42,042 nucleotides of DNA from Escherichia phage Skarpretter (NC_048112.1), one strand, 5' to 3'; shown: positions 1 to 42,042, counted from the first letter of the stretch. The notes: generated by a model from the letters alone, not told the origin. Numbers and translations: made by a program.

Positions 1-16
1 TAGCAAAAAGTGCTAT
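1..16 (-). promoter_or_regulatory. upstream half of the conserved promoter element (palindrome ATAGCAC-N4-TGCTA), truncated by window edge
   Basis: rc reads atagcactttttgcta, identical to the copy at 36884..36899; TATAGT half would lie beyond window start. Confidence 0.4.
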
Positions 17-3011: not shown

Positions 3012-3036
3012 TTAAAAAGGGGGCCAAAGCCCCCAG
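3012..3036 (-). terminator. rho-independent terminator after SPFH gene
   Basis: Minus strand: GGGGGC-tttg-GCCCCC followed by TTTTT, between SPFH stop (3042) and dut start (2996). Confidence 0.7.
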
Positions 3037-3041
3037 GTTGT

Positions 3042-3893
3042 TTACTTAACGCTGATCATCGGGGTCGCTGCGCCGGGGATCATGGTTGCAGGTAATTTAC
3101 CATCCCACTTATCGGCTTTGGTGTATTCCACCAACTGCGGGTTAGCCTGCAACGCTTCGGATTTGGCTTTAATCGCTGCCGCTTCTGCGTCGCCTTTCAT
3201 CTTGATAGCGTCCGCCTCTGCCTGGGCGTTTGCACGTTTAGCATCGGCTGCGCCTTTTGCTTTGGTGCGGGCAATGTCTGCGCTGATCTGCTCTTTCTGC
3301 AAGTTCTGCTGTTGCGTGCGGATCTCGATCTCGGCTTTCATGTTCTCCTCGATCTTGTCGTTGTACTCTTTGGAGAATTGAACGTTTTCAATCTGCACGG
3401 AGTCGATCGTAAAGGCTTTGCTTACGCTGGCCTGCAAACCCTTCTGGAAGTCTGCCGCCAGGGCGTCACGCTTGATCACGCTGTCCGCTGCGGTGTACTT
3501 ACCAAAGGCCGATTGAAAACGGGCCGGAGCCTGGCGATCAATAATGCGCTCTACTGCGTTCTCCGCCGTGCGGTACTCGCTGTAAATGTAACCAACGCTC
3601 GCGGCTGGGATCGAGTAGGTCACGGAGTAACGCACCGTCGCGTGCTGCTGGTCGCGGCTGTTACCGTTGCCCTTTTCGAAAACGCGCGTATTCTGTTGCA
3701 CGCTGATTTTTTCCACGCTGTCCAGGAAAGGCGTTTTGAAGTGTAAGCCCGGCTCCGCCGTGCCAATCACCTTGCCGTTACGGAGGATTACGCCGCGCTC
3801 GCCCTGGTCGATAATGTACCAGCTACCCAGCGCCGCCATGAGGCCAATAATGATCAGGAGAATTAAACCGCCGCCAACAATCTTTAATTTCAT
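3042..3893 (-). CDS. SPFH/band-7 (HflC/HflK, prohibitin-like) membrane protein
   Basis: 283 aa; N-terminal TM helix (GGGLILLIIIGLMAALGSWYII), SPFH-like core, C-terminal Ala/Glu/Lys-rich coiled coil; own promoter element and own terminator. Confidence 0.75.
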   Translation of the reverse strand: MKLKIVGGGLILLIIIGLMAALGSWYIIDQGERGVILRNGKVIGTAEPGLHFKTPFLDSVEKISVQQNTRVFEKGNGNSRDQQHATVRYSVTYSIPAASVGYIYSEYRTAENAVERIIDRQAPARFQSAFGKYTAADSVIKRDALAADFQKGLQASVSKAFTIDSVQIENVQFSKEYNDKIEENMKAEIEIRTQQQNLQKEQISADIARTKAKGAADAKRANAQAEADAIKMKGDAEAAAIKAKSEALQANPQLVEYTKADKWDGKLPATMIPGAATPMISVK

Positions 3894-3937: not shown

Positions 3938-3982
3938 ACTATACACTTAAACGTGAATATCTGTTTTAGCAATTTGTGCTAT
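3938..3982 (-). promoter_or_regulatory. conserved promoter element driving SPFH gene
   Basis: Minus strand reads ATAGCACaaatTGCTAAA, 23 nt, TATAGT, tcaACTCAC, ~50 nt before ATG at 3893. Confidence 0.6.
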
Positions 3983-10132: not shown

Positions 10133-10342
10133 ATGCAAATTATCATTTTGATCGCCAACGTGCGAAAAGACAAAGGCAAGAGCCAAAGCGACGTGGCAAC
10201 CGCAACTGGAATTGCGGAGCGCCAGTTAAGCCGATATGAAAACCAACACGAGATCCCGAAACTGCCAACACTGGCAAAAATCGCGGATTACCTGGGATGT
10301 ACGATCGAGGATCTTTACGAGGTCAAACAAGCCGGGGAATAA
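10133..10342 (+). CDS. XRE/Cro-like helix-turn-helix transcriptional regulator
   Basis: 69 aa; SQSDVATATGIAERQLSRYENQ HTH signature; followed by strong terminator. Confidence 0.7.
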   Translation: MQIIILIANVRKDKGKSQSDVATATGIAERQLSRYENQHEIPKLPTLAKIADYLGCTIEDLYEVKQAGE

Positions 10343-10346
10343 ATAA

Positions 10347-10372
10347 GGGGCCATAGCGGCCCCTTTTTTTTT
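10347..10372 (+). terminator. rho-independent terminator, likely bidirectional
   Basis: GGGGCC-atagc-GGCCCC followed by T9; lies between convergent HTH gene and tailspike gene. Confidence 0.8.
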
Positions 10373-12678: not shown

Positions 12679-12699
12679 TAAAAAAGGGGCCGTAGCCCC
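12679..12699 (-). terminator. rho-independent terminator after ejection-protein gene
   Basis: Minus strand GGGGC-tacg-GCCCC followed by TTTTTT. Confidence 0.7.
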
Positions 12700-12704
12700 T
12701 TCGT

Positions 12705-18476: not shown

Positions 18477-19940
18477 TTAACTTACGCGGGCACGCGCCAG
18501 CGCGATATTACACGGAGCCGCACCAACGGCACGAATACGGAAACCGATCCCGTAACGCACGCGGCCTACCTTCTGGATCAGTGAGCGTTTAAGCCACTGT
18601 TGCGGGCGGTTGTACTCGATCACCTTCTCGCCGTAATACGTCGCGCCGTCCTCGGTGGCGGCAATCCAAATGGTTTGCGCCTGGTTCAGCCCTGGCATGG
18701 TGCCGGGGTCGATCTCAAAGTCGTTTAGCATGGCGTCGCTGAGGTCTGCGATCTTCGTCCAGCACACGATCTCTTGCGGCTCGTCGTACTGGTTGGAGGT
18801 GGTCGGGTCGAGTACGCCCGCGATCGGGCTTTTACGATCGCCGCATGTGATTACGTTCCCCTCGTTGCAGAAGTCGATCGCCGTATATAGGCCATTCTGC
18901 AAACCGGATTTAAGCACGCTCCAAACGCGTTTGCCGTTCGCCGTGCTGGCGGTGTGATCGTAAACCAAAACACGATCAGGCAGGTGTACCAAAAGGAGTT
19001 GGTGATCTTCATAGCGTAGCTGCTCCAGTACAGCCGTTTTTAATTCGTCCTGCGTATAGCCGGAAAGGATGCGCCGGATCGTGTTACTGGCGAGATCCTC
19101 CCAGGATGCCCCGCCCGGATTCAGGTAGCCGATCGTGACAATTCCGCACGCCGGGGTGGTGATCATGGCGAAACTGTCCGCGTACTGGCAAACGGTGTGC
19201 GGGCCAAAGGTGCCAGCCTGCGTTGTGTAGGACTGCTGCACCTGGTAGATCTGGTCAGCGTCGCCAGTGAGCGCCCAATATTCAACCGTAGCGGTGCCAA
19301 AGGCGATCACGTAGTCGCGCCACGCCCTGATCGCTACAATGCCGTCCGGCATGGATTCAGCGCGGTATGCGGGGGCTACGGCGTCCGGCCTGCACTCGTT
19401 GAAAAGGTCGCTAACCCAAAACAGATCGCTATCTTTGGAGCAAAAAATATAACGTTGGCGGAGGTGGCAAACGTCCACAATATCGCCCCAATCAAAGCTG
19501 GTCGGATCTGCTGCCCCGCCGTTGTAGTCGTCGCTACTTTTCCAGTTCTGGAAAGCCTCGCGCCCGCCTGCGTATTTGTACATAACAAGCTGGTTTTCAT
19601 ACACAACCGCCTGGCTTGTGGTGCTGTGCGCCATAGGAGTACGATCCAGCCCGGCTACGCTGTCCACCACGTCGCGCCCCAGGTAAAGACTATTCCCCAT
19701 CACGCGATAAGGCTCATTCTTAACCGTATTCCAATGCACGCCACGCGATAAGCCGTCTACGTCCTGCTTTTGCGTCAGGCCGGGGAAGGTTCGCAGATAA
19801 CCGGACGATCCCCGAAAGCCAAACATGACCGCCAGGAGGTTTACGGGTAGGCGCTCAATATAAACGCCGTCTTTCGTGTCTACGCCGTCACCAAAGAGCA
19901 ACGGGAACTGGACATACTGCCCACGTTTGCCAACTGCCAT
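18477..19940 (-). CDS. tail hub protein (P22 gp10-like)
   Basis: 487 aa (P22 gp10 472 aa); position between gp4-like and needle genes. Confidence 0.55.
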   Translation of the reverse strand: MAVGKRGQYVQFPLLFGDGVDTKDGVYIERLPVNLLAVMFGFRGSSGYLRTFPGLTQKQDVDGLSRGVHWNTVKNEPYRVMGNSLYLGRDVVDSVAGLDRTPMAHSTTSQAVVYENQLVMYKYAGGREAFQNWKSSDDYNGGAADPTSFDWGDIVDVCHLRQRYIFCSKDSDLFWVSDLFNECRPDAVAPAYRAESMPDGIVAIRAWRDYVIAFGTATVEYWALTGDADQIYQVQQSYTTQAGTFGPHTVCQYADSFAMITTPACGIVTIGYLNPGGASWEDLASNTIRRILSGYTQDELKTAVLEQLRYEDHQLLLVHLPDRVLVYDHTASTANGKRVWSVLKSGLQNGLYTAIDFCNEGNVITCGDRKSPIAGVLDPTTSNQYDEPQEIVCWTKIADLSDAMLNDFEIDPGTMPGLNQAQTIWIAATEDGATYYGEKVIEYNRPQQWLKRSLIQKVGRVRYGIGFRIRAVGAAPCNIALARARVS

Positions 19941-20394: not shown

Positions 20395-20703
20395 TTATTT
20401 GCCTTTCTTGGCTGCTGGTTTCTTGGTTTTGGCTGGGGCTTTCTCTGTGGCGTCAGACGGCGCTTTAACAGCCTGGTAATGGGATTGCACCAGCGGGGCC
20501 GCTTCGTGCGATTCTGGCGCGGCTGGCTTAACATCCTGCGGCCTTACGTCGCCCGGTTGGGGTACTTCGGACGGGTGGCGATACCACTCGCCGGATTTGA
20601 GGGCTTTTTCTACGTCCTCGTCGGCAAAAACAGCACTTTTTGCAAAGTATTTATGCCAGTAATGTTTATTCTTACCTTCACGGTAAAGCACGGTATTAGA
20701 CAT
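20395..20703 (-). CDS. hypothetical protein with Pro/Lys-rich C-terminal tail
   Basis: Likely ATG at 20703 with GAGGT SD; C-terminus KAPAKTKKPAAKKGK; sits between coat terminator and gp4-like gene. Confidence 0.45.
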   Translation of the reverse strand: MSNTVLYREGKNKHYWHKYFAKSAVFADEDVEKALKSGEWYRHPSEVPQPGDVRPQDVKPAAPESHEAAPLVQSHYQAVKAPSDATEKAPAKTKKPAAKKGK

Positions 20704-20718
20704 GGTAATAACCTCATA

Positions 20719-20741
20719 TAAAAAAAGGGGCCGTAGCCCCT
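20719..20741 (-). terminator. rho-independent terminator after coat gene
   Basis: Minus strand GGGGC-tacg-GCCCC followed by T7. Confidence 0.75.
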
Positions 20742-20776
20742 TTATACACGAAACAATCAGGTTAATCACCTATGCC

Positions 20777-24146: not shown

Positions 24147-24191
24147 ACTATAGCCCCATCCGTGGGGCTTGTCTTTAGCAAAAAGTGCTAT
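24147..24191 (-). promoter_or_regulatory. conserved promoter element driving the 24100 unit
   Basis: Minus strand ATAGCACttttTGCTAAA, 23 nt, TATAGT, ctcCTCACAttcac. Confidence 0.6.
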
Positions 24192-26478: not shown

Positions 26479-26522
26479 ATAGCACGAATTGCTAAAGCAT
26501 TTCACGTTAAAGTGATTATAGT
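26479..26522 (+). promoter_or_regulatory. conserved promoter element driving the 3-gene cassette
   Basis: ATAGCACgaatTGCTAAA, 22 nt, TATAGT, aatCTCACAttcac, ~35 nt before ATG at 26557. Confidence 0.6.
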
Positions 26523-26556
26523 AATCTCACATTCACGAACAAATGAGGGCTTTAAA

Positions 26557-26763
26557 ATGTTAACTTTCGTAATCGTTGTTGCGGCGCTGTCCTGGATCGT
26601 CTGCTCATGGCTCGTTGGCGCGGCTGCTGGGCGGTACTTCGCCAGCCCGGTTTGCGCGTGGGTCTACCTGGGCGTTTCGCTGGTGCTGTCGCCGCTGGTG
26701 GGCCTGCTGGTGCTGTTTGGCTCTCACCTGCTGGACTACATCGAATCGCGGGGCCGCGCATGA
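26557..26763 (+). CDS. small membrane protein (two predicted TM helices)
   Basis: 68 aa, two hydrophobic helices; GAGGG SD; ATGA overlap with next ORF. Confidence 0.55.
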   Translation: MLTFVIVVAALSWIVCSWLVGAAAGRYFASPVCAWVYLGVSLVLSPLVGLLVLFGSHLLDYIESRGRA

Positions 26764-26933
26764 AACGTAAAGAGCGGTTAAGCCTGCTGGCAGTGCGCAA
26801 CCTCGCGGCGGGCTGTCCGCCGTCAAAGATCCCCGGCCCTGCGTCGCGCATGGACTGCGAGGAAATTATAACGGAGTTGGCCCAGCGTTACGTGCGGCTC
26901 CTGGATAAAGTCAACGCTATGAAATACAGGTGA
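26760..26933 (+). CDS. small hypothetical protein
   Basis: 57 aa, translationally coupled (ATGA); shares ELAQR motif with following ORF. Confidence 0.45.
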   Translation: MKRKERLSLLAVRNLAAGCPPSKIPGPASRMDCEEIITELAQRYVRLLDKVNAMKYR

Positions 26934-26937
26934 TAAG

Positions 26938-27123
26938 ATGGACGAAATAACGATAAGCATTATCGATCAGCTTGCGGACGGCGTGCCGTTTTACGATCTC
27001 CTCTCCGGGTACGATAGCGAATCGCTGATCCAGGAGTTGGCCCAACGCTTACGCGATGCCAACGACGAGATCGAAAGCCTGGGTTATGAGGTGATGGAAT
27101 TACAAGATCCGGGGAGTTCATGA
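26938..27123 (+). CDS. small acidic hypothetical protein
   Basis: 61 aa, AGGTGATAAG SD, followed by terminator. Confidence 0.5.
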   Translation: MDEITISIIDQLADGVPFYDLLSGYDSESLIQELAQRLRDANDEIESLGYEVMELQDPGSS

Positions 27124-27124
27124 A

Positions 27125-27152
27125 AACAGGGGCCATTGCGGCCCCTTTTGCG
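27125..27152 (+). terminator. rho-independent terminator (bidirectional position)
   Basis: GGGGCC-attgc-GGCCCC followed by TTTTG; between convergent cassette and terL 3' end. Confidence 0.7.
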
Positions 27153-32204: not shown

Positions 32205-32238
32205 TACATAACAATAAACCGGGCATCAAAACCCGGTT
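32205..32238 (-). terminator. rho-independent terminator
   Basis: Minus strand AACCGGG-8 nt loop-CCCGGTT followed by TTATTGTTATG. Confidence 0.5.
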
Positions 32239-32314
32239 AGGCAAAAAGTGCTATATGTTCATCAGCAACGCGATCCACAAAAACCAAAGAAGCATTAACG
32301 TTGATCCGTCCATC

Positions 32315-32482
32315 TTAAAAGCTCCTCGTGACCAGCCACGATCCCAGCCACGACAACAAAAACGACGCCAGCGCCAGGAATGGGATCACCGTCCATTCAT
32401 TCAGCCCATACGCCGCAACCAATCCGCCAGCCACCAGGGCAACGGCAATCACTCCGGCAATAACGCAAGATTCAACACCCAT
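32315..32482 (-). CDS. small membrane protein
   Basis: ~55 aa from ATG at 32482 (AGGAGG SD); hydrophobic. Confidence 0.45.
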   Translation of the reverse strand: MGVESCVIAGVIAVALVAGGLVAAYGLNEWTVIPFLALASFLLSWLGSWLVTRSF

Positions 32483-32588
32483 CGTAAAACCTCCTGTAAC
32501 GCGCTCTAAGCGCCTCAAACGAAAAAGGCAGGCAATCACCTTACCCGCCCCCAAATTCCCGCGCATACGTGAGGACACGCGGCGACGT

Positions 32589-32877: not shown

Positions 32878-33093
32878 TCATAAGATACCCTCCAGATTAA
32901 GCGCCACCAGTGCGCCCCATATACCCAGCGTTGCGCCACCTCCGACAACGCACCAGACGATCATTAAGCAATTCCACAACCCGTACTTTTCGATCCAGTA
33001 GTCGCGCCACTCGGTGAAACGGTTTGTTTTCTTCTCCGGCGTTGGTGGTGTGCCACGATGATCCGGGAAATTGCCTGCGATAACGTTACTCAT
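32878..33093 (-). CDS. small membrane protein
   Basis: 71 aa, GAGGAG SD, C-terminal hydrophobic helix. Confidence 0.5.
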   Translation of the reverse strand: MSNVIAGNFPDHRGTPPTPEKKTNRFTEWRDYWIEKYGLWNCLMIVWCVVGGGATLGIWGALVALNLEGIL

Positions 33094-33401
33094 ACTTTAT
33101 TCACTCCTCAATGAATGTACAACATCGCACAAAAGTTGTTTTGTCTTTTCGTGCTGTCGGCCTTTACCGCTTCCGGCAATCGCTAACATCGCCAACGCAC
33201 AATAAGCCCGCAAGGGCGTTTGGGTGCGGTGGTGTGCGTAGCGAGTGGCGAGCGTAGCGAGTTAACACGATAGTGTTTTATATATATAAGGGCGCACTCT
33301 TGTTGTTGTGCATATTAAACCCTTGATTTATATAGCCTTTTCACCACTCCCGCACAATAATAAGTTTTGTGCGGGTTATGTTATTGAAATACAAAGAAAA
33401 A

Positions 33402-34973
33402 TCAGCGTTCAGCCAGCGGCGGCGGCGATGCGTCGTTAGCCGTCAAAATCTCCTCGCCGTCATTGTTGATAAACGAGCGGATCAGCTGCTTTTTGATCGC
33501 GTTCTCGATCGAGCGCTTGATCTGGTATGGCGTTTTCGCGGTGCGCTCCGCCATTTGGTTTGTGGTGTCCATGCGTTCATGCTGCCCGCCGCGTGCCATG
33601 AGGAAATCGATCACGTCCTGCTCGCTGTTGCTCGGCCTGGTGAGTCTCGGATCTGGCTTGTTCTTCGACTCGCCGCGCTGCGCTTTCTTCTGCTCCTCCT
33701 GCTGCGCTACCAGTTCAGCGGCTAACGTCGCCTCGTCCACCAGTTCGCACGCGTTCAGGTAGCCACCACAAAACAGCGGGTCAATCGGGTTAAGTCCTTT
33801 CAGCGGCTGCGCTGGGCGGATCGAATCCTCAAACTCTGCGAGATATTCCGCCCGGTGCGCTTCTGCTTCGTCGTCCGGGAAGATCTGCATTGTCCGTTTA
33901 GTCAGGCGCAAGAGTTGGGCGATCCCCCCACCACGGCGCTTGCCTGCTGCCATGATGATTTTATCCGGCTGGGTTTTGTCCTGCGTGAGCGAAAACGTTT
34001 TCCAAACCGCACCCTTTGCCGCGCCACCTCCGCGTGACTCCAGCACGAGATAAGGCGATCGCTCGGCCTCCTTGCTTACGTGGGGAATGAAGATCCCGCA
34101 CGCTCCCAGCGCCAGGGCAAAGCGATAACCGCAAAACGTAATGTACTGCTGATCGTCGTTGCTGTTTTCGTCCAGGGGTTTACCGTTGCGCTCGGCGCTG
34201 GATAGGTGAAAACTCTTTGAGTCATAAACAACCATGCACACCTGGCGATCCCCGGCAAAGTCTTTGATCTGGCGGATCTGGCGTAATGCGTTCTCACCCC
34301 ATACCGGGCGATCGAGTTGTACGACGCGCTCAACCTCGCGCCCGTCCGGGCCGATCTCTTTCACGGTCTTAACTTTGGTTGTGTCGGTCAGCGCTGCGGG
34401 GTGCTCGCAGATCAGGACGTGATCCAGGATGTTTTCGCCCCACTCCAGTTGCCAGGCGGAAAGGCAGTTAGTGACGGTTTCGGCGTCCTCGGTAAAAAAC
34501 ACGCTGATCCCTTTCTTCACCATGAAAGCATCCAGGAAAGGTCTACCCGTTGCCACGCACGCCGCCAGCATGGACAAGAGCGTAGTTTTGCCCACGCCTG
34601 GCCCGGCGTTGATCTCGTTGATCGTGTTCATGTTAAACAGGTATTGCACAAACGGCTTTGGGATCTTCGGTTTCGGGTTCTCAATGAATACGGAGGCGGG
34701 CTTACGCTCCGGCTTTGGCTGCTGCGGGCCTGCGTCCTCGTTGTCCGGCTCGTCCACCTGCTCGGAGTGATCGGCAAGGCGTGCTAACTCCGCGTCGCTA
34801 TAGTCGGGAGCCTGCGCCGCTAACCACTCCTCCGGCATGTCCGGCACGGTGTCGCCCAACTCTCCCCAGGTCTGCATGTCCTCGTAATCCGGCTCGAATT
34901 GCTCCGGCTCCGGGGTTGGCTCCTGCTGCTGTAAAGAGCCGTTGCCACGGTGTTTTGTGGGGTCGAATTTCAT
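33402..34973 (-). CDS. P-loop NTPase (RecA/DnaB-like Walker A), possible replicative ATPase/helicase
   Basis: 523 aa; acidic disordered N-terminus, Walker A NAGPGVGKTTL, Walker B-like VCMVVYDS; first gene of leftward operon. Confidence 0.65.
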   Translation of the reverse strand: MKFDPTKHRGNGSLQQQEPTPEPEQFEPDYEDMQTWGELGDTVPDMPEEWLAAQAPDYSDAELARLADHSEQVDEPDNEDAGPQQPKPERKPASVFIENPKPKIPKPFVQYLFNMNTINEINAGPGVGKTTLLSMLAACVATGRPFLDAFMVKKGISVFFTEDAETVTNCLSAWQLEWGENILDHVLICEHPAALTDTTKVKTVKEIGPDGREVERVVQLDRPVWGENALRQIRQIKDFAGDRQVCMVVYDSKSFHLSSAERNGKPLDENSNDDQQYITFCGYRFALALGACGIFIPHVSKEAERSPYLVLESRGGGAAKGAVWKTFSLTQDKTQPDKIIMAAGKRRGGGIAQLLRLTKRTMQIFPDDEAEAHRAEYLAEFEDSIRPAQPLKGLNPIDPLFCGGYLNACELVDEATLAAELVAQQEEQKKAQRGESKNKPDPRLTRPSNSEQDVIDFLMARGGQHERMDTTNQMAERTAKTPYQIKRSIENAIKKQLIRSFINNDGEEILTANDASPPPLAER

Positions 34974-35007: not shown

Positions 35008-35036
35008 AATATACGCTAACGGGATGTATTACACAA
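35008..35036 (-). promoter_or_regulatory. putative sigma70-type leftward promoter (TTGTGT-17-TATATT) for ATPase operon
   Basis: Minus strand TTGTGT, 17 nt spacer, TATATT, ~30 nt upstream of ATG at 34973; -35 overlaps a 9-bp inverted repeat. Confidence 0.45.
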
Positions 35037-35061
35037 CAAAACTTTAAAACTATTGTTGTGT
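35031..35061. repeat. perfect 9-bp inverted repeat ACACAACAA-N13-TTGTTGTGT (candidate operator)
   Basis: In divergent control region between ATPase operon and plus-strand early island; overlaps -35 of leftward promoter. Confidence 0.6.
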
Positions 35062-35074
35062 AAGTTTTGTGTGA

Positions 35075-35118
35075 ATAGCACGAATTGCTAAAACAGCTTT
35101 ATGAATACTATGTATAGT
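35075..35118 (+). promoter_or_regulatory. conserved promoter element driving plus-strand island
   Basis: ATAGCACgaatTGCTAAA, 22 nt, TATAGT, tatCTCACAccaac, 32 nt before ATG at 35151. Confidence 0.6.
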
Positions 35119-35150
35119 TATCTCACACCAACGAATTGAGGCAAAACAAA

Positions 35151-35696
35151 ATGACTACAGCAATCACAATGAAAGTAACCCTCGGCGCACTGGCTGGCCT
35201 GATCTCCTACTGCGAAAACAAAAAAATGAAAATGGCAAAGATTCAGGCGCACGTTTCTAACATCGCCTTTATCGAACTGAATCACCCGGCCTTTGCTTAC
35301 GCTAAAGACCTGCTCAACGAGGCCGCTGATAAGCGCCGCACCTTCTCCGGCGTTGCTAACTGCATCCAGGCGGCGATTACTGAGATCAACCGCGTGATCG
35401 ACGCTGCGCACGCTGAGGCCCTGGAAATGGACGCGGTAGTAAATGATTGCGTAACCCGTTTCAAATACTGCATCGATCACTATCAGGCTGAATGCAACGT
35501 TAAAAACGAGATCCACGGCCTCGTGATTGCGAAAGGCTACGCGCTCGGCTGGACGGCTCGCATGATGGTTAAAATGGTGGCTAACGTGTGGCGTTTGGGT
35601 GAGGCGGCGGCAAAGGCACACCGCGCACATACTGCGGCAATGCTGGCGGCGGCTCCGGCTAATGGCTCAATCCCTGATTATGATCTCCCGTTTTAA
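35151..35696 (+). CDS. hypothetical protein with SSB-like C-terminal tip (..SIPDYDLPF)
   Basis: ~181 aa from ATG at 35151 (GAGG SD); C-terminus IPDYDLPF. Confidence 0.6.
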   Translation: MTTAITMKVTLGALAGLISYCENKKMKMAKIQAHVSNIAFIELNHPAFAYAKDLLNEAADKRRTFSGVANCIQAAITEINRVIDAAHAEALEMDAVVNDCVTRFKYCIDHYQAECNVKNEIHGLVIAKGYALGWTARMMVKMVANVWRLGEAAAKAHRAHTAAMLAAAPANGSIPDYDLPF

Positions 35697-35710
35697 CTCC
35701 GGGGCGGCGA

Positions 35711-35754
35711 ATAGCACGAATTGCTAAACGCCGCGTCTAAATACTATGTATAGT
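35711..35754 (+). promoter_or_regulatory. conserved promoter element
   Basis: ATAGCACgaatTGCTAAA, 22 nt, TATAGT, tatCTCACAccaac, before ATG 35788. Confidence 0.6.
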
Positions 35755-35787
35755 TATCTCACACCAACAAACAACGGAGTAAACGAA

Positions 35788-36102
35788 ATGAAAACTTTAA
35801 CAATCGCTCAACATGCTTCACTGGCTCGTGTATGCACCGCGTTACGCCTGGCAATCAGTAAAGGTAACATCACCGTAAGCAACGCGATCCGCCTGCTGTC
35901 CGGTGACGCAACAACCGCCGCTGGCGAGTTGGGCTTAACCCTCACCCGCCGCCAGGGGTCAACAACTCATGACCTGGACACGGTGGAGGTTGTGGAGTAC
36001 GCCTTAATGGCGCTGGCGTCCGGCTTTAAGCGTGACGTGCTGGAAGCGCTGAAAGAGTTACGCGCCGATAGTCACGCCGCTATTGACCGCGCCAAAATCT
36101 AA
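35788..36102 (+). CDS. hypothetical protein
   Basis: ~105 aa from ATG at 35788 (GGAG SD). Confidence 0.55.
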   Translation: MKTLTIAQHASLARVCTALRLAISKGNITVSNAIRLLSGDATTAAGELGLTLTRRQGSTTHDLDTVEVVEYALMALASGFKRDVLEALKELRADSHAAIDRAKI

Positions 36103-36144
36103 CCAGCCCGGCCCCTGCGGGGGCCATAACCCGGAGTAATTACC

Positions 36145-36426
36145 ATGCGTTACAATGAAGAAAAAGCCCTCTACTTTGCGGATCAGGATAAAGGTTTACA
36201 CGTCGCGCCGGACGAGGCAACGCGCAAAACTGATCTGCACATCCTGGTAACTCGCGCCCTGGACAAAGGGCACATTAAACAGGTTGCGTCCGATGATTCC
36301 GGGGTGTACTACCGGACAACGCCCGCTGGCGTCCGCCGCCTGCTGAATCTGCAAATCTCATGGCGTGAGAAAAACGGCAAAGACTGCGACGCGCACCGCG
36401 CCCGCCTGGCTCAATTGACGGAGTAA
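36145..36426 (+). CDS. hypothetical protein
   Basis: 93 aa, GGAG SD. Confidence 0.55.
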   Translation: MRYNEEKALYFADQDKGLHVAPDEATRKTDLHILVTRALDKGHIKQVASDDSGVYYRTTPAGVRRLLNLQISWREKNGKDCDAHRARLAQLTE

Positions 36427-36431
36427 GACCG

Positions 36432-36887
36432 ATGAAACCACAAGAGATCAAAAAGGCGGGCATCTTCTCAAAGGATGATATTCACTGCTTCACTGACTGC
36501 GGCTACAACTGCAAGGCAAAGGTAAGGGCTGATCTTGAGGCGCATTACGCGCCAATCGCTGCGGCGCTGGGTAACGGCTGGCGCGTTAACATCTGGCACA
36601 ACGGCGGCTGGCACGCTAACCTGGCGCATGATGAATCACAATTTTACCTGAGCGATCGAGCGGTGCGCGGCGGTATCAGTGCAATGAAGGTGGACGCCGA
36701 TCGGTTTGAGGACAACGTAAACCGCTTTGAGGTGTTCAATTACGAATACCCGGAGGGCACCAGCCAGGTTTGGGTGTACGGTAACGATCCGAAAGACGCG
36801 ATCCGCAACGCCTTTAACGCCGTGTCGGAGCGGGTAGTAGCCTACATGGTGCAACAACAAAAGATCCTGGACGCTTTCCCCGGATAG
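36432..36887 (+). CDS. hypothetical protein
   Basis: 151 aa, Trp/Asn/Gly-rich; stop codon lies inside next promoter palindrome. Confidence 0.55.
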   Translation: MKPQEIKKAGIFSKDDIHCFTDCGYNCKAKVRADLEAHYAPIAAALGNGWRVNIWHNGGWHANLAHDESQFYLSDRAVRGGISAMKVDADRFEDNVNRFEVFNYEYPEGTSQVWVYGNDPKDAIRNAFNAVSERVVAYMVQQQKILDAFPG

Positions 36888-36927
36888 CACTTTTTGCTAA
36901 ACGCTCCTCGTAAATACTTGGTATAGT
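36884..36927 (+). promoter_or_regulatory. conserved promoter element
   Basis: ATAGCACttttTGCTAAA, 22 nt, TATAGT, tctTTCACAccaac, before ATG 36959. Confidence 0.6.
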
Positions 36928-36958
36928 TCTTTCACACCAACACGAGGAGCGAAACAAA

Positions 36959-37180
36959 ATGGCTAAATCAACAATCCGCGTTACCAACGATAAAGGCTTT
37001 GGCGGTTACTACGGCAACCTCCGCAAGTGGGAAGGTCTGAAACGTAAAGACCTGGCCTGGAAAGACGAGGATTTAACCGGAGAAAGCGCGGCGCACGATC
37101 CCGACTTCTGGATCGACGAGTACACCACGCAAGCGGAAATTGACTACCGCAACCGCGCACACCGCGCAAAGTTTGACTAA
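36959..37180 (+). CDS. hypothetical protein
   Basis: 73 aa, GAGGAG SD. Confidence 0.55.
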   Translation: MAKSTIRVTNDKGFGGYYGNLRKWEGLKRKDLAWKDEDLTGESAAHDPDFWIDEYTTQAEIDYRNRAHRAKFD

Positions 37181-37222
37181 CGGCCCCACGGGGCCAAATC
37201 CACCCAGCACGAGGGGCATTTT

Positions 37223-37579
37223 ATGACCGACAAGAAAGTAACCGTTATCACCCGCTGGCCTACGGCGGAGGATGCACACCAGGACGCGGAGCGCGTGGCG
37301 CTCATGCTGAAATTTCCGGGCACCGTGAAGATCGAAACGTTCACCCGTGAGGAAAAATACGGCGGCGGCTTTGGCTACACCATCGCGGACGGCGGGAGGA
37401 TCTCCGTTTCATGCTTGGGGATCACCCGTTACAAGGCGCGTTATCATGGCATTGACGGGCACGATCGGGAGGTTGACGGCCTCACGGCTGAGGATGCGAT
37501 CACCACGCTTAAAAACGAGTTGGCGGAGCATTGCAACGCCATGATCGAGGGTTTCAGGACTTTACAGGGCGGTGAATAA
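37223..37579 (+). CDS. hypothetical protein
   Basis: 118 aa, GAGGGG SD. Confidence 0.55.
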   Translation: MTDKKVTVITRWPTAEDAHQDAERVALMLKFPGTVKIETFTREEKYGGGFGYTIADGGRISVSCLGITRYKARYHGIDGHDREVDGLTAEDAITTLKNELAEHCNAMIEGFRTLQGGE

Positions 37580-37839
37580 TGCACCAGGTTAAGCAAGTTG
37601 GTTGGGCTGGCCCGAAAAAAAATAAAGCCGTTTACTCTGTCGTCCTCGGCGGACGCCTGCCGGAGTATTTTTATTGCGCCGGGCAAATGCACTACATCAA
37701 AGAGCGCCGGAATAATCGCGGGGCGATCGTTCGCCGTCCACTCCCGGTTGTGTCCAGCGTCACCCGAAAGCTGATCGAGGACGCCGTAAGGGCGTACCAG
37801 GTCGAGGAGATCAAGGCCAATGAGAAAGCCGGGGATTGA
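37579..37839 (+). CDS. hypothetical protein
   Basis: 86 aa, start overlaps previous stop (TAATG). Confidence 0.5.
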   Translation: MHQVKQVGWAGPKKNKAVYSVVLGGRLPEYFYCAGQMHYIKERRNNRGAIVRRPLPVVSSVTRKLIEDAVRAYQVEEIKANEKAGD

Positions 37840-38071
37840 TTACAGTAAACGCGTGCCCCGTATGTGGTTAAACGATATGGGGCCTGGTGGGCGCGTATTC
37901 TGCCGCGTGCGGAGCGCGTCAAAGGAGGCGTTGATCAAGTGGAGCAAAGAGCGCCGTTTGTTCTCGCTGTCCGGGTTGTACCTGCTGAATATTAACCGCC
38001 TGCCGCTGAAACGCTACCGGGCGGAGATCGCGGCGGGATCTTTGTTTGTTCACACTGGCTATAAAAGGTAA
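37820..38071 (+). CDS. hypothetical protein
   Basis: 83 aa, basic; GAGGAG SD; 20-nt overlap with previous ORF. Confidence 0.4.
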   Translation: MRKPGIDYSKRVPRMWLNDMGPGGRVFCRVRSASKEALIKWSKERRLFSLSGLYLLNINRLPLKRYRAEIAAGSLFVHTGYKR

Positions 38072-38076
38072 ATATC

Positions 38077-38379
38077 ATGGAAAATCAAAAGGCTGTAACC
38101 GTTGAAAAATTCGCCCGTTTGTATGAGGTACACGGGCGGCAATTCCTGGTTAAGAAGGGTAAAGACTCGGACGACAACCCGAAATTATCCATCATTACCC
38201 AAATTGACGGCGCGGAAGTTGATTTTGGTTTCTGCTTCCCGGACAACGATCAGGGCTGGGAAGGTCTGGATCATGCTTTCGCCAAAGAGCCGGAGATCCT
38301 GGAGGTTGTCAACGGATTTGGTGAGAAGATTAAAGACTGCAAAACCGCAATAGAAGTGATGTTTGCTTTAAGGTCGTAA
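38077..38379 (+). CDS. hypothetical protein
   Basis: 100 aa, acidic; last gene before terminator. Confidence 0.5.
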   Translation: MENQKAVTVEKFARLYEVHGRQFLVKKGKDSDDNPKLSIITQIDGAEVDFGFCFPDNDQGWEGLDHAFAKEPEILEVVNGFGEKIKDCKTAIEVMFALRS

Positions 38380-38400: not shown

Positions 38401-38430
38401 TAACCGCCCTTTGTGGCGGTTTTCTTTTTG
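38401..38430 (+). terminator. rho-independent terminator ending the early island
   Basis: AACCGCC-ctttgt-GGCGGTT followed by TTCTTTTTG. Confidence 0.7.
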
Positions 38431-38462
38431 GTGTTATATTCCCCTCGTTCACTAATCTTGCA

Positions 38463-38822
38463 ATGAGGGATCTCCGAATGTCAGACACGCCGCTAACCCT
38501 GCATCAGTTATTCATGATGTATCGAACTGAGTTAGGGTATTCATTCATCGCCGCCGTTGTGGCGGTCTTTCGTCACTGGCAATTGCGGCACCCTTTCCGG
38601 GATATGGTAACGAGCGCCGTTATCTGCGCCGCTTTTGCTTTCGGTATGAAATCAATTTTAGAATTTTTCAAAATCGACGGCGGGTTATGGGGTTATCTGG
38701 CCTCGGTCATGCTGGGCTATATGGGTGTCGAAACCCTGTTAGACTACGCCAGCGAAAAGATCCCATTCCTGCGCCGTTCCCCCCGTAAAACTGAGGAGTT
38801 AAACGACAATGGCAAAGCGTGA
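38463..38822 (+). CDS. S: holin, lambda S-like, with dual-start motif
   Basis: 119 aa; begins MRDLRM (two Met separated by charged residues, like lambda S107/S105); TM segments; LGYMGVETLLDYASEKI resembles lambda S IGYIGTDSIGSLIKRF. Confidence 0.7.
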   Translation: MRDLRMSDTPLTLHQLFMMYRTELGYSFIAAVVAVFRHWQLRHPFRDMVTSAVICAAFAFGMKSILEFFKIDGGLWGYLASVMLGYMGVETLLDYASEKIPFLRRSPRKTEELNDNGKA

Positions 38823-39282: not shown

Positions 39283-39833
39283 TGTGGGGCGCGATCCTGG
39301 CCCTCCTGCGCCGATACTGGAAGCCGATCGCCGTAATCCTCCTCGTGCTGCTGGCGCTGGGGGGATCTTACCTTAAAGGCTCGGCTGATAAGGATCAGGA
39401 ATGGCAAGCGCGATGGACACAACGCGATCTGGACGATTCCACCCAGAAAGGGATCGATAATGTAGCCGCCCGGATAATTGAACAAGGCCGGGCCATTGAA
39501 CGCCAGGAGGCGATCGAGGATGCACAAAAACGGGAAGCCGCCGCGCTGGCTGCTGCTGATCGGTTGCGTGGTACTGTTGACGGCCTGCAACAACTCGCCA
39601 ACAAATACGCGGCCCAACTGGACGCCCAGCGGGCAACCACTGATCTTGCCGCTGCCGTCGCAAGCAAAACAAAAGCCCAGGGGGCCGGAGTGCTCGCCGT
39701 CATGCTCGGAAGCGTTGCAAAGGAAGCTGAATATTATGCTAAACGATCTGACGAAAGCTACGACGCCGGGCTAACCTGCGAGCGGCTTTACGAGTCGGTG
39801 AGGGTGACGCAAGAAAAAGTCAAGGGGCCATAA
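39282..39833 (+). CDS. Rz: i-spanin (Rz-like)
   Basis: 183 aa; N-terminal TM helix, periplasmic coiled-coil; TAATG coupling with R. Confidence 0.7.
   Translation: MWGAILALLRRYWKPIAVILLVLLALGGSYLKGSADKDQEWQARWTQRDLDDSTQKGIDNVAARIIEQGRAIERQEAIEDAQKREAAALAAADRLRGTVDGLQQLANKYAAQLDAQRATTDLAAAVASKTKAQGAGVLAVMLGSVAKEAEYYAKRSDESYDAGLTCERLYESVRVTQEKVKGP
39520..39774 (+). CDS. Rz1: o-spanin (Rz1-like) lipoprotein embedded in +1 frame of Rz
   Basis: ~84 aa from internal ATG; signal peptide with lipobox (LIGC / LTAC), Pro-rich mature region. Confidence 0.55.
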   Translation: MHKNGKPPRWLLLIGCVVLLTACNNSPTNTRPNWTPSGQPLILPLPSQAKQKPRGPECSPSCSEALQRKLNIMLNDLTKATTPG

Positions 39834-39848
39834 CGGCCCCTTTTTTTA
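39822..39848 (+). terminator. rho-independent terminator (bidirectional position)
   Basis: GGGGCC-ataac-GGCCCC followed by T7; between Rz and convergent Ig-like gene. Confidence 0.8.
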
Positions 39849-40583
39849 TGCTGCTGGGTTGACGGTTAACACGCAATTGGTGCTTTGCGCCGTCTTGTTG
39901 TTGGCGTCTTTGACGATAACATAATACGTGCCAGCATCACCCGCAACGGCTGCGGCCTTGCTGTACGTTGCGGAGGTTGCGCCGGAGATCGCGGCCCCGT
40001 CTTTGTACCACTGATAAGTGCGGGCGGGTTTGCTGGTGGTTGCTGCCGCTGCCACGATCGAGATCGCCGCCCCGGTGTCAACTGCCAGCGTTGCGGGCGG
40101 CTGCGTGCTAAAGCTCGGCAAGCGGTAGGAGGTGACGGGCATCACGTTAGACGTGATCGCGGTTCCTTCTGCGTCCGTTACCACGCATGACCAGTTATAG
40201 GTGCCGTTGCTTGGGAAAACATCATCAACGTTGCTTGGGCCAAATGTCGGTGAGTTCGATCCCACGTTGGACGCGCTGCGCTTCCACTGGTAAGTGTAAG
40301 GGGCAACGCCGCCAGTAACGGCAACCGTGAGCGGGCCGAATGTTTCCCCGTTGCTTAGGTACACGTCGGCGTGACTTGTGGCAATGTTGGTGGTAAACGC
40401 CAGCGGCTTAACCAGGCGCGGATCAAGCTCAATATAAAACATCCCGGTAGGGTCGAGATCTGCCGGGTCGGTATCAAGCCAGATAATATCTTTTTGCGGG
40501 GTGTGCCCGCTCGCTGGATCTTCGATGCGGGTTACTTTCCACCCTAACAGATCCTTGCGGTAGTATCGGTGCCAAAAGCCCAT
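39846..40583 (-). CDS. protein with two predicted Ig-like domains
   Basis: 245 aa; two repeats with Ig-like signature (YTYQWKRS...GTYNWSCVVTD and YQWYKDGAAISGATSATY...GTYYVIVKD...CVLTV); AAGAGG SD. Confidence 0.6.
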   Translation of the reverse strand: MGFWHRYYRKDLLGWKVTRIEDPASGHTPQKDIIWLDTDPADLDPTGMFYIELDPRLVKPLAFTTNIATSHADVYLSNGETFGPLTVAVTGGVAPYTYQWKRSASNVGSNSPTFGPSNVDDVFPSNGTYNWSCVVTDAEGTAITSNVMPVTSYRLPSFSTQPPATLAVDTGAAISIVAAAATTSKPARTYQWYKDGAAISGATSATYSKAAAVAGDAGTYYVIVKDANNKTAQSTNCVLTVNPAA

Positions 40584-40674: not shown

Positions 40675-41007
40675 TTACTGCGTTATCTTGCCAGCCTTAA
40701 CCCATTTAACGCGCCTGTTAGCCACTGAGGCAAGCGGACGCTCTAAACGTGCGGCAATCTCTTTGGTTGTTACGCCCTCGTTTGCCAACTCGATCAACGC
40801 CTGATCCTCCGTGCTTTTCCAGTATTCGAAAGATCGGGCCGCTTTCATGTCGAGGCCCAAATAGCGCCCCCGATTCTGGATCGAGTTGAGCGGACGGCCC
40901 AACTTGTGCGCAAGCTGTTTGGCGGTTAAGCGCTCCTCTTTCGGCAATGCCGCGTTACTGATCAGCGCCTGATCCTCTGCTGCGGTGTACTGTTTCCCGT
41001 TTGGCAT
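40675..41007 (-). CDS. DNA-binding protein with two tandem Myb/SANT-like HTH repeats
   Basis: 110 aa; repeats AEDQALIS...TAKQLAHKLGRPLNSIQNR and TEDQALIEL...TTKEIAARLERPLASVANRR resemble the Myb repeat W-x-EDQ-x-IEL...IA..L...R. Confidence 0.5.
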   Translation of the reverse strand: MPNGKQYTAAEDQALISNAALPKEERLTAKQLAHKLGRPLNSIQNRGRYLGLDMKAARSFEYWKSTEDQALIELANEGVTTKEIAARLERPLASVANRRVKWVKAGKITQ

Positions 41008-41009
41008 TA

Positions 41010-41162
41010 TTCATCCTCCGCAAAGCGCAAAGCCTTTTGGCGGGTGATCTCTTTCGCCAGCGTTTTGATCAGGTCTGCCCAATCGAACGTGCCACGGATC
41101 ACGCTCTCCGGGTTCGCGCCTTTGGCGAGCGCCTGGATCTGCTTGTGGGTTAATTTCTTCAT
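41010..41162 (-). CDS. small hypothetical ORF (50 aa), translationally coupled
   Basis: Not in supplied ORF track; ATG overlaps upstream stop (ATGA), stop overlaps downstream ATG; supported only by coupling. Confidence 0.3.
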
Positions 41163-41419
41163 AAGCCTTTAAGCCTCTTTGGGTTGTGGTTGGTTTTAAT
41201 GGCGGCTTTAAACTCCGCCTTTGTCTGCTGCGTGCCGGGAACGATCCGCACGTAACGCTGGGGTTTATTGTGTAAGAAGGTGCAAACCCCGTCTTTGATT
41301 ACTGCAATGTCGGCTATGTCGCCGTCAAACGCGGCGGAGATCCGCTTTATGTCCTCCGCCATGCCTGCGGCTTTCACCGCCTCCCATACCTCCGCCTTAC
41401 TGCCGTTTTTGTAATGCAC
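41159..41419 (-). CDS. hypothetical protein
   Basis: 86-aa ORF in coupled operon. Confidence 0.5.
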   Translation of the reverse strand: MHYKNGSKAEVWEAVKAAGMAEDIKRISAAFDGDIADIAVIKDGVCTFLHNKPQRYVRIVPGTQQTKAEFKAAIKTNHNPKRLKGL

Positions 41420-42000: not shown

Positions 42001-42013
42001 CGTTGTTGCTCCT

Positions 42014-42042
42014 CTTGTTGGTGTGAGGTCACTATACAAAGT
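42014..42042 (-). promoter_or_regulatory. downstream half of conserved promoter element (TATAGT-N3-CTCACACCAAC), truncated by window edge
   Basis: Minus strand reads tatagtgacCTCACAccaac then GAGGAG SD and ATG at 42000. Confidence 0.5.

Follow-up and report, generated by a model that had tools for sequence, protein, structure and literature searches.

Marbox-type promoters at an accessory gene island of Escherichia phage Skarpretter and their occurrence in T1-like phages

In the class II promoters of the Escherichia coli regulators MarA, SoxS and Rob, a forward-oriented marbox overlaps the -35 region and clusters at -41, a -35 hexamer is lacking, and the -10 hexamer is canonical (PMC12052159; PMC10268841; PMC8811837). 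The marbox itself has been described by the consensus AYNGCACNNWNNRYYAAAYN (PMC2064960) and, in a newer definition, by gcannwwntgnnaaa (PMC12052159). The middle promoters of phage T4, which work by MotA/AsiA sigma appropriation, likewise pair a good -10 hexamer with an activator box in place of the -35 element, in many copies per lytic genome. Here we describe promoters of class II layout in the virulent podovirus Escherichia phage Skarpretter (NC_048112.1; record MK105855, host E. coli K-12 MG1655, PMC7552041). All coordinates refer to the window, i.e. the whole stretch of 42,042 base pairs (bp) that was analysed, which has a guanine plus cytosine (GC) content of 55.8%, and the work started from a block of nine small plus-strand genes at 35,151–38,379, hereafter the island. 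The genome is syntenic with that of Escherichia phage C130_2, with proteins 30–75% identical. The common frame comprises a P22-like structural block, a T1-like replication/recombination block and an AAA-ATPase gene, which is followed by a run of small plus-strand genes and then by the lysis cassette; the same frame is seen in Sortsne and in Kosakonia phage Kc166B.

Three near-identical promoter copies, as had been noted in a preliminary description of this DNA, lie at 35072–35133, 35708–35769 and 36881–36942, and belong to one repeat family (D1) in which they are 79–82% identical to the reference copy. The promoter begins with an asymmetric box of 20 bp, ATAGCAC-NNW-TTGCTAAA-NN, after which come a spacer of exactly 18 or 19 bp without conserved sequence, the hexamer TATAGT, a pyrimidine-rich 6-mer and an A. 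Of 143 related sites, 133 have this A 7 nucleotides (nt) after the hexamer, and it was taken as the predicted start (+1), from which the predicted leaders run for 25–27 nt and contain the ribosome-binding site. In the first promoter (P1, all three being on the plus strand) a forward, marbox-type box at 35075..35094, ATAGCACGAATTGCTAAAAC, is followed after 18 bp by TATAGT at 35113..35118, with a predicted +1 A at 35125 and a leader of 26 nt. P2 has its box at 35711..35730, ATAGCACGAATTGCTAAACG, its TATAGT at 35749..35754 and its predicted +1 A at 35761. In P3 the box at 36884..36903, ATAGCACTTTTTGCTAAACG, contains the TAG stop codon of the preceding open reading frame (ORF), ORF4, and TATAGT at 36922..36927 leads to a predicted +1 A at 36934. 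The arrangement of P1 with ORF1 is conserved in Kc166B, where the equivalent of the P2 box is found at +2485, and that of P3 with ORF5 is kept in C130_2, where a box at +4736 precedes gp07.

Agreement with the host consensus is close. P1 fits AYNGCACNNWNNRYYAAAYN at 13 of the 14 specified positions and P2 and P3 at all 14 (12–14 for the promoter type overall), and all three boxes match the newer definition with 0 mismatches. The window holds eight exact matches to gcannwwntgnnaaa, compared to 0.21 in shuffled sequences, and six of the eight are promoter boxes, including the three of the island. Read from the E. coli chromosome, the micF promoter consists of the 20-bp marbox ACAGCACTGAATGTCAAAAC, 18 bp, TAGAAT, 7 nt and then +1, where the phage promoters have a 20-bp box, 18–19 bp, TATAGT, 6 nt and then A. 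In every copy the box points toward the downstream gene and ends 18–19 bp before the -10 hexamer, as at micF, and its centre falls near -41 when counted from the predicted, unmapped start. Judged on sequence, the phage promoters thus carry the class II features of an asymmetric 20-bp box, in forward orientation near -41, with a canonical -10 and no -35, and their geometry equals that of micF to the base pair. The gene and promoter anatomy, its conservation, the fit to consensus and the micF-like geometry are all directly established. Host promoters of this class (micF and, by literature, lpxC P2, lpxL P1 and rfaY P1) and those of the phage are alike in that a 20-bp asymmetric forward marbox, centred near -41, replaces the -35 element, with 18 bp to a sigma-70 -10 hexamer and a start 7–8 nt later. 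They differ in that the phage promoters occur in virulent genomes, at 9–16 copies each, with near-identical and near-consensus boxes, whereas host marboxes are notoriously degenerate. The phage boxes also have additional fixed positions (A3, T11 and T12), and both the A-rich flank upstream of them and the leader are conserved.

No recognisable -35 hexamer is present, as the sequence 17 bp 5' of TATAGT reads AAACGC, AAAACA or AAAGCA and is not conserved. A scan with the sigma-70 consensus did not detect the island promoters, nor did it find ordinary promoters in excess anywhere in the genome. Several other promoter types were considered and set aside. An ordinary sigma-70 promoter with the TTGCTA motif as its -35 would have a spacer of 22 bp, a distance at which this hexamer cannot serve, and the alternatives at 17 bp are those just described. 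A sigma-54 promoter (TGGCAC-N5-TTGC) resembles the phage box (TAGCAC-N3-TTGC), but the phage spacing is 2 bp short, AG replaces GG, and there is a conserved -10 hexamer 22 bp downstream. For sigma-32, the CCCCAT of T1-type leaders lacks a matching -35 and is not found in Skarpretter. The MotA box of T4, (a/t)(a/t)TGCTT(t/c)A, has in common with the phage box the letters TGCT; it is centred at -30, is read by a phage protein and lies 11–13 bp from the -10 hexamer, compared to -41 and 18–19 bp for the Skarpretter-type box, so the distance is wrong. No homologue of MotA or AsiA was found among the phage proteins scanned, a set that covers part of the ORFs of the window.

A uniform scan (box, 18–19 bp, TAnnnT) found nine copies of the promoter in the window, compared to 0.25 in shuffled sequences, and a further copy is divided between the two ends of the window. 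The preliminary description had likened the arrangement of the island to early host-takeover regions of lytic phages. The promoters do not set the island apart as a special early unit, because the same type heads the head genes, the DNA-metabolism genes and other units across the genome. Box promoters stand before the head genes (24147..24191, minus strand; kept in C130_2 and Kc166B), before an operon for SPFH, dUTPase, methylase and RusA proteins (3938..3982, minus) and, at 26479..26522 (plus), before an ORF of 108 amino acids (aa) flanked by the portal and terminase genes, which it opposes in transcription, an arrangement kept in C130_2 (+37099). A weaker copy at 33114..33157 (minus), matching at 12 of 14 positions and with TACATT as its -10, precedes a 71-aa gene at 32878–33093, and a degenerate one at 32211..32254 (minus), TTGCCTAAC with TATTGT, precedes a 324-aa gene and has a counterpart at -1345 in C130_2. 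The split copy (minus) has its box at 1..16 and its -10 and leader at 42002–42036. When the window is joined as a circle this box lies 2–6 bp from TATAGT instead of 18–19 bp, so either some 16 bp seem to be missing at the deposited ends or the ends are not contiguous.

Two arrangements around these promoters were seen in passing. At the head-gene promoter the TAG stop codon of the portal gene lies inside the box (ATAGCAC), as does that of ORF4 at P3, and the 19-bp spacer accommodates the terminator hairpin of the portal gene; this organisation is kept in three phages, at about 34770–34813 in C130_2 and about 32450–32496 in Kc166B. Box promoters also oppose late structural genes, namely at 26479–27152 (plus), at a weaker site at 20630 (plus) and, in T1, at 18850 (minus). 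Transcription of the 108-aa ORF runs head-on into that from terminase to portal and stops at a bidirectional terminator. A role of the opposed promoters in transcriptional interference or antisense timing is possible.

The same scan was applied to related phages, with counts of 8 in C130_2 (shuffle mean 0.10), 4 in Kc166B (0), 16 in T1 (0.6) and 0 in Sortsne (0). In C130_2 the box occupies syntenic places, including those before gp05 and gp07, which are the counterparts of the island, and in Kc166B it precedes the homologues of ORF1 and ORF2; Sortsne shares the genome frame and has no box at all. Among the matches listed from IMG/VR, more than 119 stretches carry the box followed by 18–19 bp and TATAGT, mostly on contigs of 45–52 kb, and the two that were checked are both from T1-like siphoviruses. 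The 143 unique sites among the matches listed agree even at positions that the search pattern left free (A1 in 90%, Y2 in 94% and W10 in 98%). In T1 itself there are 17 exact matches to the marbox core where 0.62 are expected. T1 boxes lie directly after upstream stop codons, in the left-end region of small genes and in the replication/methylase region, and the late structural block has no sense-strand copy with a usable -10 hexamer; going by sequence, this placement would fit early or middle expression. The T1 -10 hexamers vary as sigma-70 hexamers do (TATAGT, TATAAT, TATGAT, TAGAAT, TATTAT) at a fixed spacer of 18 bp. Terminators are annotated in the T1 record (NC_005833) and promoters are not. 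Literature outside subscription papers yielded no relevant report on marbox-type phage promoters, on T1 promoters, or on Rob, MarA or SoxS in phage transcription. A comparison of the boxes of Skarpretter, C130_2, Kc166B and T1 shows differences at positions 2 (T/C), 3 (A/C), 8–12 and 14 (C/T), mainly where the marbox consensus is free or degenerate, while GCAC and YTAAA are fixed.

A further record, OR754315.1 ('Stutzerimonas phage vB_SstS_STP9'), has box promoters near-identical to those of C130_2, together with C130_2-type genes, and is flagged UNVERIFIED_ORG. Its Stutzerimonas host looks doubtful, and we did not use it to assess host range because, with that flag and those boxes, it offers no independent host information.

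Turning to the island itself, the anatomy given in the preliminary description proved accurate. All nine plus-strand ORFs (73–181 aa) are present at the coordinates claimed, with a Shine-Dalgarno-like GGAG or GAGG 6–10 nt 5' of each, and homologues of every one of them in one or more other phages show them to be real genes. The two GC hairpins lacking U tracts are there as well, each directly after a stop codon (those of ORF2 and ORF5), and the terminator proposed just before the lysis cassette is supported. The layout runs P1-ORF1, P2-ORF2-hairpin-ORF3-ORF4, P3-ORF5-hairpin-ORF6 to ORF9, and terminator. Behind P1 lies ORF1 (35151..35696; 181 aa). P2 is followed by ORF2 (35788..36102; 104 aa), the first hairpin (36110..36125; GGCCCC-UGCG-GGGGCC, a 6-bp stem of -15.3 kcal/mol), ORF3 (36145..36426; 93 aa, PHROG 27118, of unknown function) and ORF4 (36432..36887; 151 aa, of an uncharacterised family). 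P3 precedes ORF5 (36959..37180; 73 aa), the second hairpin (37182..37195; GGCCC-CACG-GGGCC, a 5-bp stem), ORF6 (37223..37579; 118 aa), ORF7 (37579..37839; 86 aa), ORF8 (37820..38071; 83 aa, basic), which overlaps the end of ORF7, and ORF9 (38077..38379; 100 aa, PHROG 19244, of unknown function), which is 100% identical to Skarpretter gp54 and in several phage genera is found just 5' of the holin. The closing intrinsic terminator (38402..38430, plus) reads AACCGCCC-loop-GGCGGTT and has both the GC stem-loop (38402–38421, z -2.5) and the T run of a rho-independent terminator. Neither U-tract-less hairpin has this combination, and in stability both are ordinary compared to GC-rich shuffles of equal composition (z -0.4 and -0.9 respectively). 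They may be structures at cassette edges or RNA ends instead of full terminators. The island would accordingly comprise three nested transcription units, from P1 through ORF1, from P2 through ORF2–ORF4, and from P3 through ORF5–ORF9 to the terminator. As a side observation, both hairpins have the core of a terminator family found elsewhere in the genome (described below), without its T runs.

In gene content the island is hypervariable while the rest of the genome is syntenic, with variable accessory content inside a conserved frame, and a megablast comparison with the phage collection gave no match. C130_2 has homologues for ORF5 (gp07, 68% identity) and ORF7 (gp09, 44%) only. The ORF1 and ORF2 pair is shared with Kc166B (about 63% identity over two pieces for ORF1+ORF2), and ORF3 and ORF4 with Cronobacter T1-like phages. 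Sortsne- and Murrayvirus-type phages share ORF5, ORF9 and probably ORF6, as tblastn pieces appear to cover the latter in Kc237 and in Murrayvirus-type phages; ORF8 has a probable homologue in the C130_2-like record STP9. No paralogy was found between ORF4 and ORF6, or between ORF2 and the first gene after the split promoter. The ORF3 product is 91% identical in amino acid sequence to CSG01_048 of Cronobacter phage SG01, and the cassette is about 90% identical in DNA sequence (alignment judged by eye; 36040–36460 versus SG01 2390–2830). This identity takes in the upstream GC hairpin, which forms the 5' edge of the cassette, and reaches 20 nt into ORF4, where similarity drops. Skarpretter is a podovirus and SG01 a Drexlerviridae siphovirus, with genomes otherwise unrelated. 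The likeness of the cassettes indicates recent exchange between phage families that have this promoter type in common. The island is a mosaic of mobile cassettes, a hypervariable and fast-evolving accessory block, and "early accessory region" is a plausible name for it. Like the morons of lambdoid phages, its parts are self-contained promoter-gene cassettes that are mobile between phages (P1-ORF1 and P2-ORF2 with Kc166B, P3-ORF5 with C130_2, and the ORF3 cassette with SG01). Unlike morons, they sit in a virulent genome, have no full terminators of their own, and lie inside a common transcription unit instead of a repressed prophage.

Concerning the proteins, the lack of recognisable catalytic motifs was borne out, as all nine ORFs appeared non-catalytic and non-structural in every family search, and no informative family was found in Pfam, PHROGs, NCBIfam or PADLOC, the last being a collection of defence and not of anti-defence proteins. 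A likeness to Ocr, ArdA, anti-CRISPR, kinase or ADP-ribosyltransferase families, which had been suggested as worth seeking, was seen for no ORF in these searches. Structure prediction, applied to ORF4 and ORF9, gave models with a predicted local distance difference test (pLDDT) score of about 90 (90 for ORF4) and no significant neighbour in the PDB. A known takeover or anti-defence family or fold was therefore found neither among the nine proteins searched nor in the two models. The ORF4 family comprises 41 representative clusters, with CxxxCGxxC and GWxxRVWxNxGWH motifs conserved in the alignment. In some members the ORF4 domain is the C-terminal domain of larger proteins, and neither ORF4 nor these larger proteins gave a Pfam match. 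The island proteins may be accessory, and host-directed, anti-defence or exclusion roles would all be possible.

The promoters are the more notable result, being the general type of this phage, built in the form of host class II marbox promoters, and common to T1-like phages. The reading to which we lean, by a little, is that the island is an accessory block whose units would start at general marbox-type sigma-70 promoters activated by host MarA, SoxS or Rob. A monomer of this host family would bind the box and recruit host RNA polymerase, as at micF, so that a near-consensus forward marbox centred near -41 would stand in for the -35 of a sigma-70 promoter with a good TATAGT, and transcription would start at the A 7 nt after the hexamer. 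The likeliest factor in unstressed cells would be Rob, given its abundance. If only host proteins are needed, the units could fire once the DNA enters the cell, and three promoters within 1.8 kb would place the island among the regions of the genome with the highest transcription. Pfam detected no AraC-type protein, sigma factor or RNA polymerase in the phage proteins scanned, and a phage-own RNA polymerase or sigma factor, as used with T7-like or phiEco32-like promoters, is not annotated in C130_2, Sortsne, Kc166B or T1. T1 and Skarpretter have in common a primase, a helicase, a VRR-NUC nuclease, ExoVIII, Erf, a Dam methylase and one 86-aa protein; no shared DNA-binding protein was found. As no phage DNA-binding protein tracks the box across the groups, we infer activation by host factors. 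Binding by these factors, the points at which transcription starts, early expression and the roles of the proteins are likewise inferred. A broader proposition, which we hold to be evenly balanced, is that T1-like siphoviruses, T1 included, and the podoviruses Skarpretter, C130_2 and Kc166B may leave -35 recognition at the majority of their non-structural units to host MarA, SoxS and Rob (and RamA). The course of infection would then be coupled to bile, oxidative or antibiotic stress in the cell, and promoter-gene cassettes such as those of the island could spread freely among phages with this promoter type.

The 86-aa protein (at about 41159–41419) was itself considered as a box-linked factor and rejected, because it is common to T1-like phages and also occurs in Sortsne and IME279, both of which lack the box. 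Its T1 homologue is an unannotated ORF of 90 aa at 40239–40511 (38% identity to Skarpretter 41159–41419, E 3e-10), and this small protein is found in 392 phage records.

Several observations weigh against activation by host MarA, SoxS or Rob. The phage box is tighter than the host consensus requires, with A3 in about 97% and T2 in about 84% of related sites, with T11 and T12 fixed in Skarpretter, C130_2 and most T1 sites, and with a TAGCA-N5-TGCTA dyad inside it. This extra constraint and the dyad mean that a second or a different protein may read the box. Position 19 is often A or G instead of Y. Unstressed cells contain little MarA or SoxS and keep most of their Rob sequestered. Because these phages nevertheless form plaques on K-12 in standard media, reliance on such factors would require either high-affinity sites or induction by the infection. 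The same promoter stands before the head genes, and the promoter type alone therefore cannot place the island in the early class. Finally, a 110-aa protein with tandem helix-turn-helix (HTH) motifs (40678–41007, minus) occurs only in podoviruses that carry the box. This protein underlies an alternative that we regard as unlikely, though not negligibly so, in which a phage factor reads the box at -35 in the manner of T4 MotA or of a substitute for sigma region 4, and the units behind boxes, with the island among them, would be middle and not immediate-early genes. Homologues are known only from C130_2, STP9 and Kc166B, all with the box, and not from box-less Sortsne; its two HTH-like repeats give sub-threshold matches to Sigma70_r4_2 and HTH_23, and it weakly resembles 2lvs_A, a chain of 105 residues to which both halves of the query align. 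The tightness of the box would also suit such a reader. However, BLAST detects no homologue in T1 or in the hundreds of T1-like phages that share this box and its spacing, the Skarpretter and C130_2 proteins are only about 33% identical although the box is identical in both, and no other recognisable promoter class is enriched. The gene for the protein also lies within an operon headed by a box promoter, so another factor must start its expression. The 110-aa protein is thus a weakened rival candidate for reading the box, or may be a modulator. It is a good deal less probable that the box is an operator, with the dyad bound by a dimeric phage repressor (for example the Cro/CI-type HTH_3 protein at 10133–10339, or T1 gp23) and the promoters free of any activator. 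The dyad is a perfect 5+5 repeat in Skarpretter, C130_2 and T1, and both phage groups encode small Cro-like HTH proteins. Against this, an activator-free promoter would have no usable -35, with TTGCTA 22 bp from the -10, and no consistent extended -10; the flanks of the dyad are conserved asymmetrically (A-TAGCA-C versus T-TGCTA-AA); and Sortsne has the HTH_3 protein without the box. Changes in the box are also not mirrored across the dyad, as those at positions 12 and 14 have no counterpart at 6 and 4, and Kc166B has lost the left arm (ACCGCAC) but retains GCAC and YTAAA. Such asymmetric variation argues against a palindromic dimer site and fits an asymmetric monomer such as MarA better. Operator function could still hold alongside activation, as a shut-off layer at the same site.

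Two further explanations concern the use of the promoters and their genes. We give very little credence to the idea that the promoter and leader segment is mainly a patch of homology for cassette shuffling, with its marbox likeness incidental. Unrelated phage families do share conserved sequence between about -50 and +15, a stretch that takes in the leader, and cassette boundaries coincide with boxes or hairpins, with upstream stop codons embedded in the box. The 18-bp spacer between box and hexamer is nevertheless fixed in length and free in sequence, which indicates a bipartite signal read by protein and not a recombination patch, the -10 hexamer of T1 varies within sigma-70 rules, and, judging from the shuffles, it is very unlikely that 13–14 of 14 consensus positions would be matched by chance with orientation and distance also correct. 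A more serious possibility, about which we remain doubtful, is that the island is a dedicated early module for host takeover or anti-defence, in which at least one of the nine proteins would inhibit a host defence system or host enzyme. The proteins are small, non-structural and without known domains, promoter density is high, and one cassette was recently exchanged with an unrelated phage family. The content is hypervariable within a conserved frame that runs from the AAA-ATPase gene to the lysis cassette in four phage genera. The island resembles the T7 class I genes with Ocr, the T5 pre-early region and the small early ORFs of T4 in having small, poorly conserved, non-structural genes behind strong promoters for host polymerase. 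It differs from them in that no known takeover or anti-defence member is present and in that its promoter type also serves replication, methylase and head-gene units. No similarity to a known anti-defence or takeover family was seen, the two confident models have no PDB analogue, and the features named would equally fit superinfection exclusion, replication accessory roles or selfish cargo. The island is in our view a sensible but unproven place to seek host-directed or anti-defence proteins.

If activation by host MarA, SoxS and Rob is correct, the transcription strategy of T1, a classic phage without annotated promoters, could be tested directly with strains and proteins already available. 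The growth of phages would be tied to regulators that lie behind clinical multidrug resistance, such that strains overexpressing marA, ramA or soxS might be better hosts, with a bearing on phage-antibiotic combinations. Promoters and accessory cassettes could also be located by one simple rule in the genomes, hundreds in number, of Drexlerviridae and related phages.

Some features of the surrounding genome were also noted. Scans with Rfam and for tRNA gave no match. Between P1 and the divergent AAA-ATPase gene lies an inverted repeat with perfect 11-bp arms (35029–35063; TTACACAACAA-N13-TTGTTGTGTAA). It overlaps a candidate leftward sigma-70 promoter (TTGTGT-17-TATATT) and has the appearance of an operator; C130_2 has a different repeat, of TTGAT units, at the equivalent place. 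Operon ends in Skarpretter are marked by near-identical bidirectional terminators with a GGGGCC-loop-GGCCCC core, at 10345–10370, 27127–27152, 39822–39847, 12680–12701, 20721–20742 and 3014–3035. Directly behind the box promoter at 3938..3982 is a gene for an SPFH/Band 7 membrane protein (3042–3893, minus; Pfam E 5e-33), present in Kc166B, where it is annotated as a membrane protease family protein, and not in C130_2. On the 3' side of the island terminator, an extended -10-like TGtTATATT (38432–38440) is followed by the lysis cassette, with a holin (Pfam Phage_holin_3_1), a lambda-R-like endolysin and spanins. The holin begins with MRDLRM (38463–38480), a possible dual start of the holin/antiholin type seen in lambda S.

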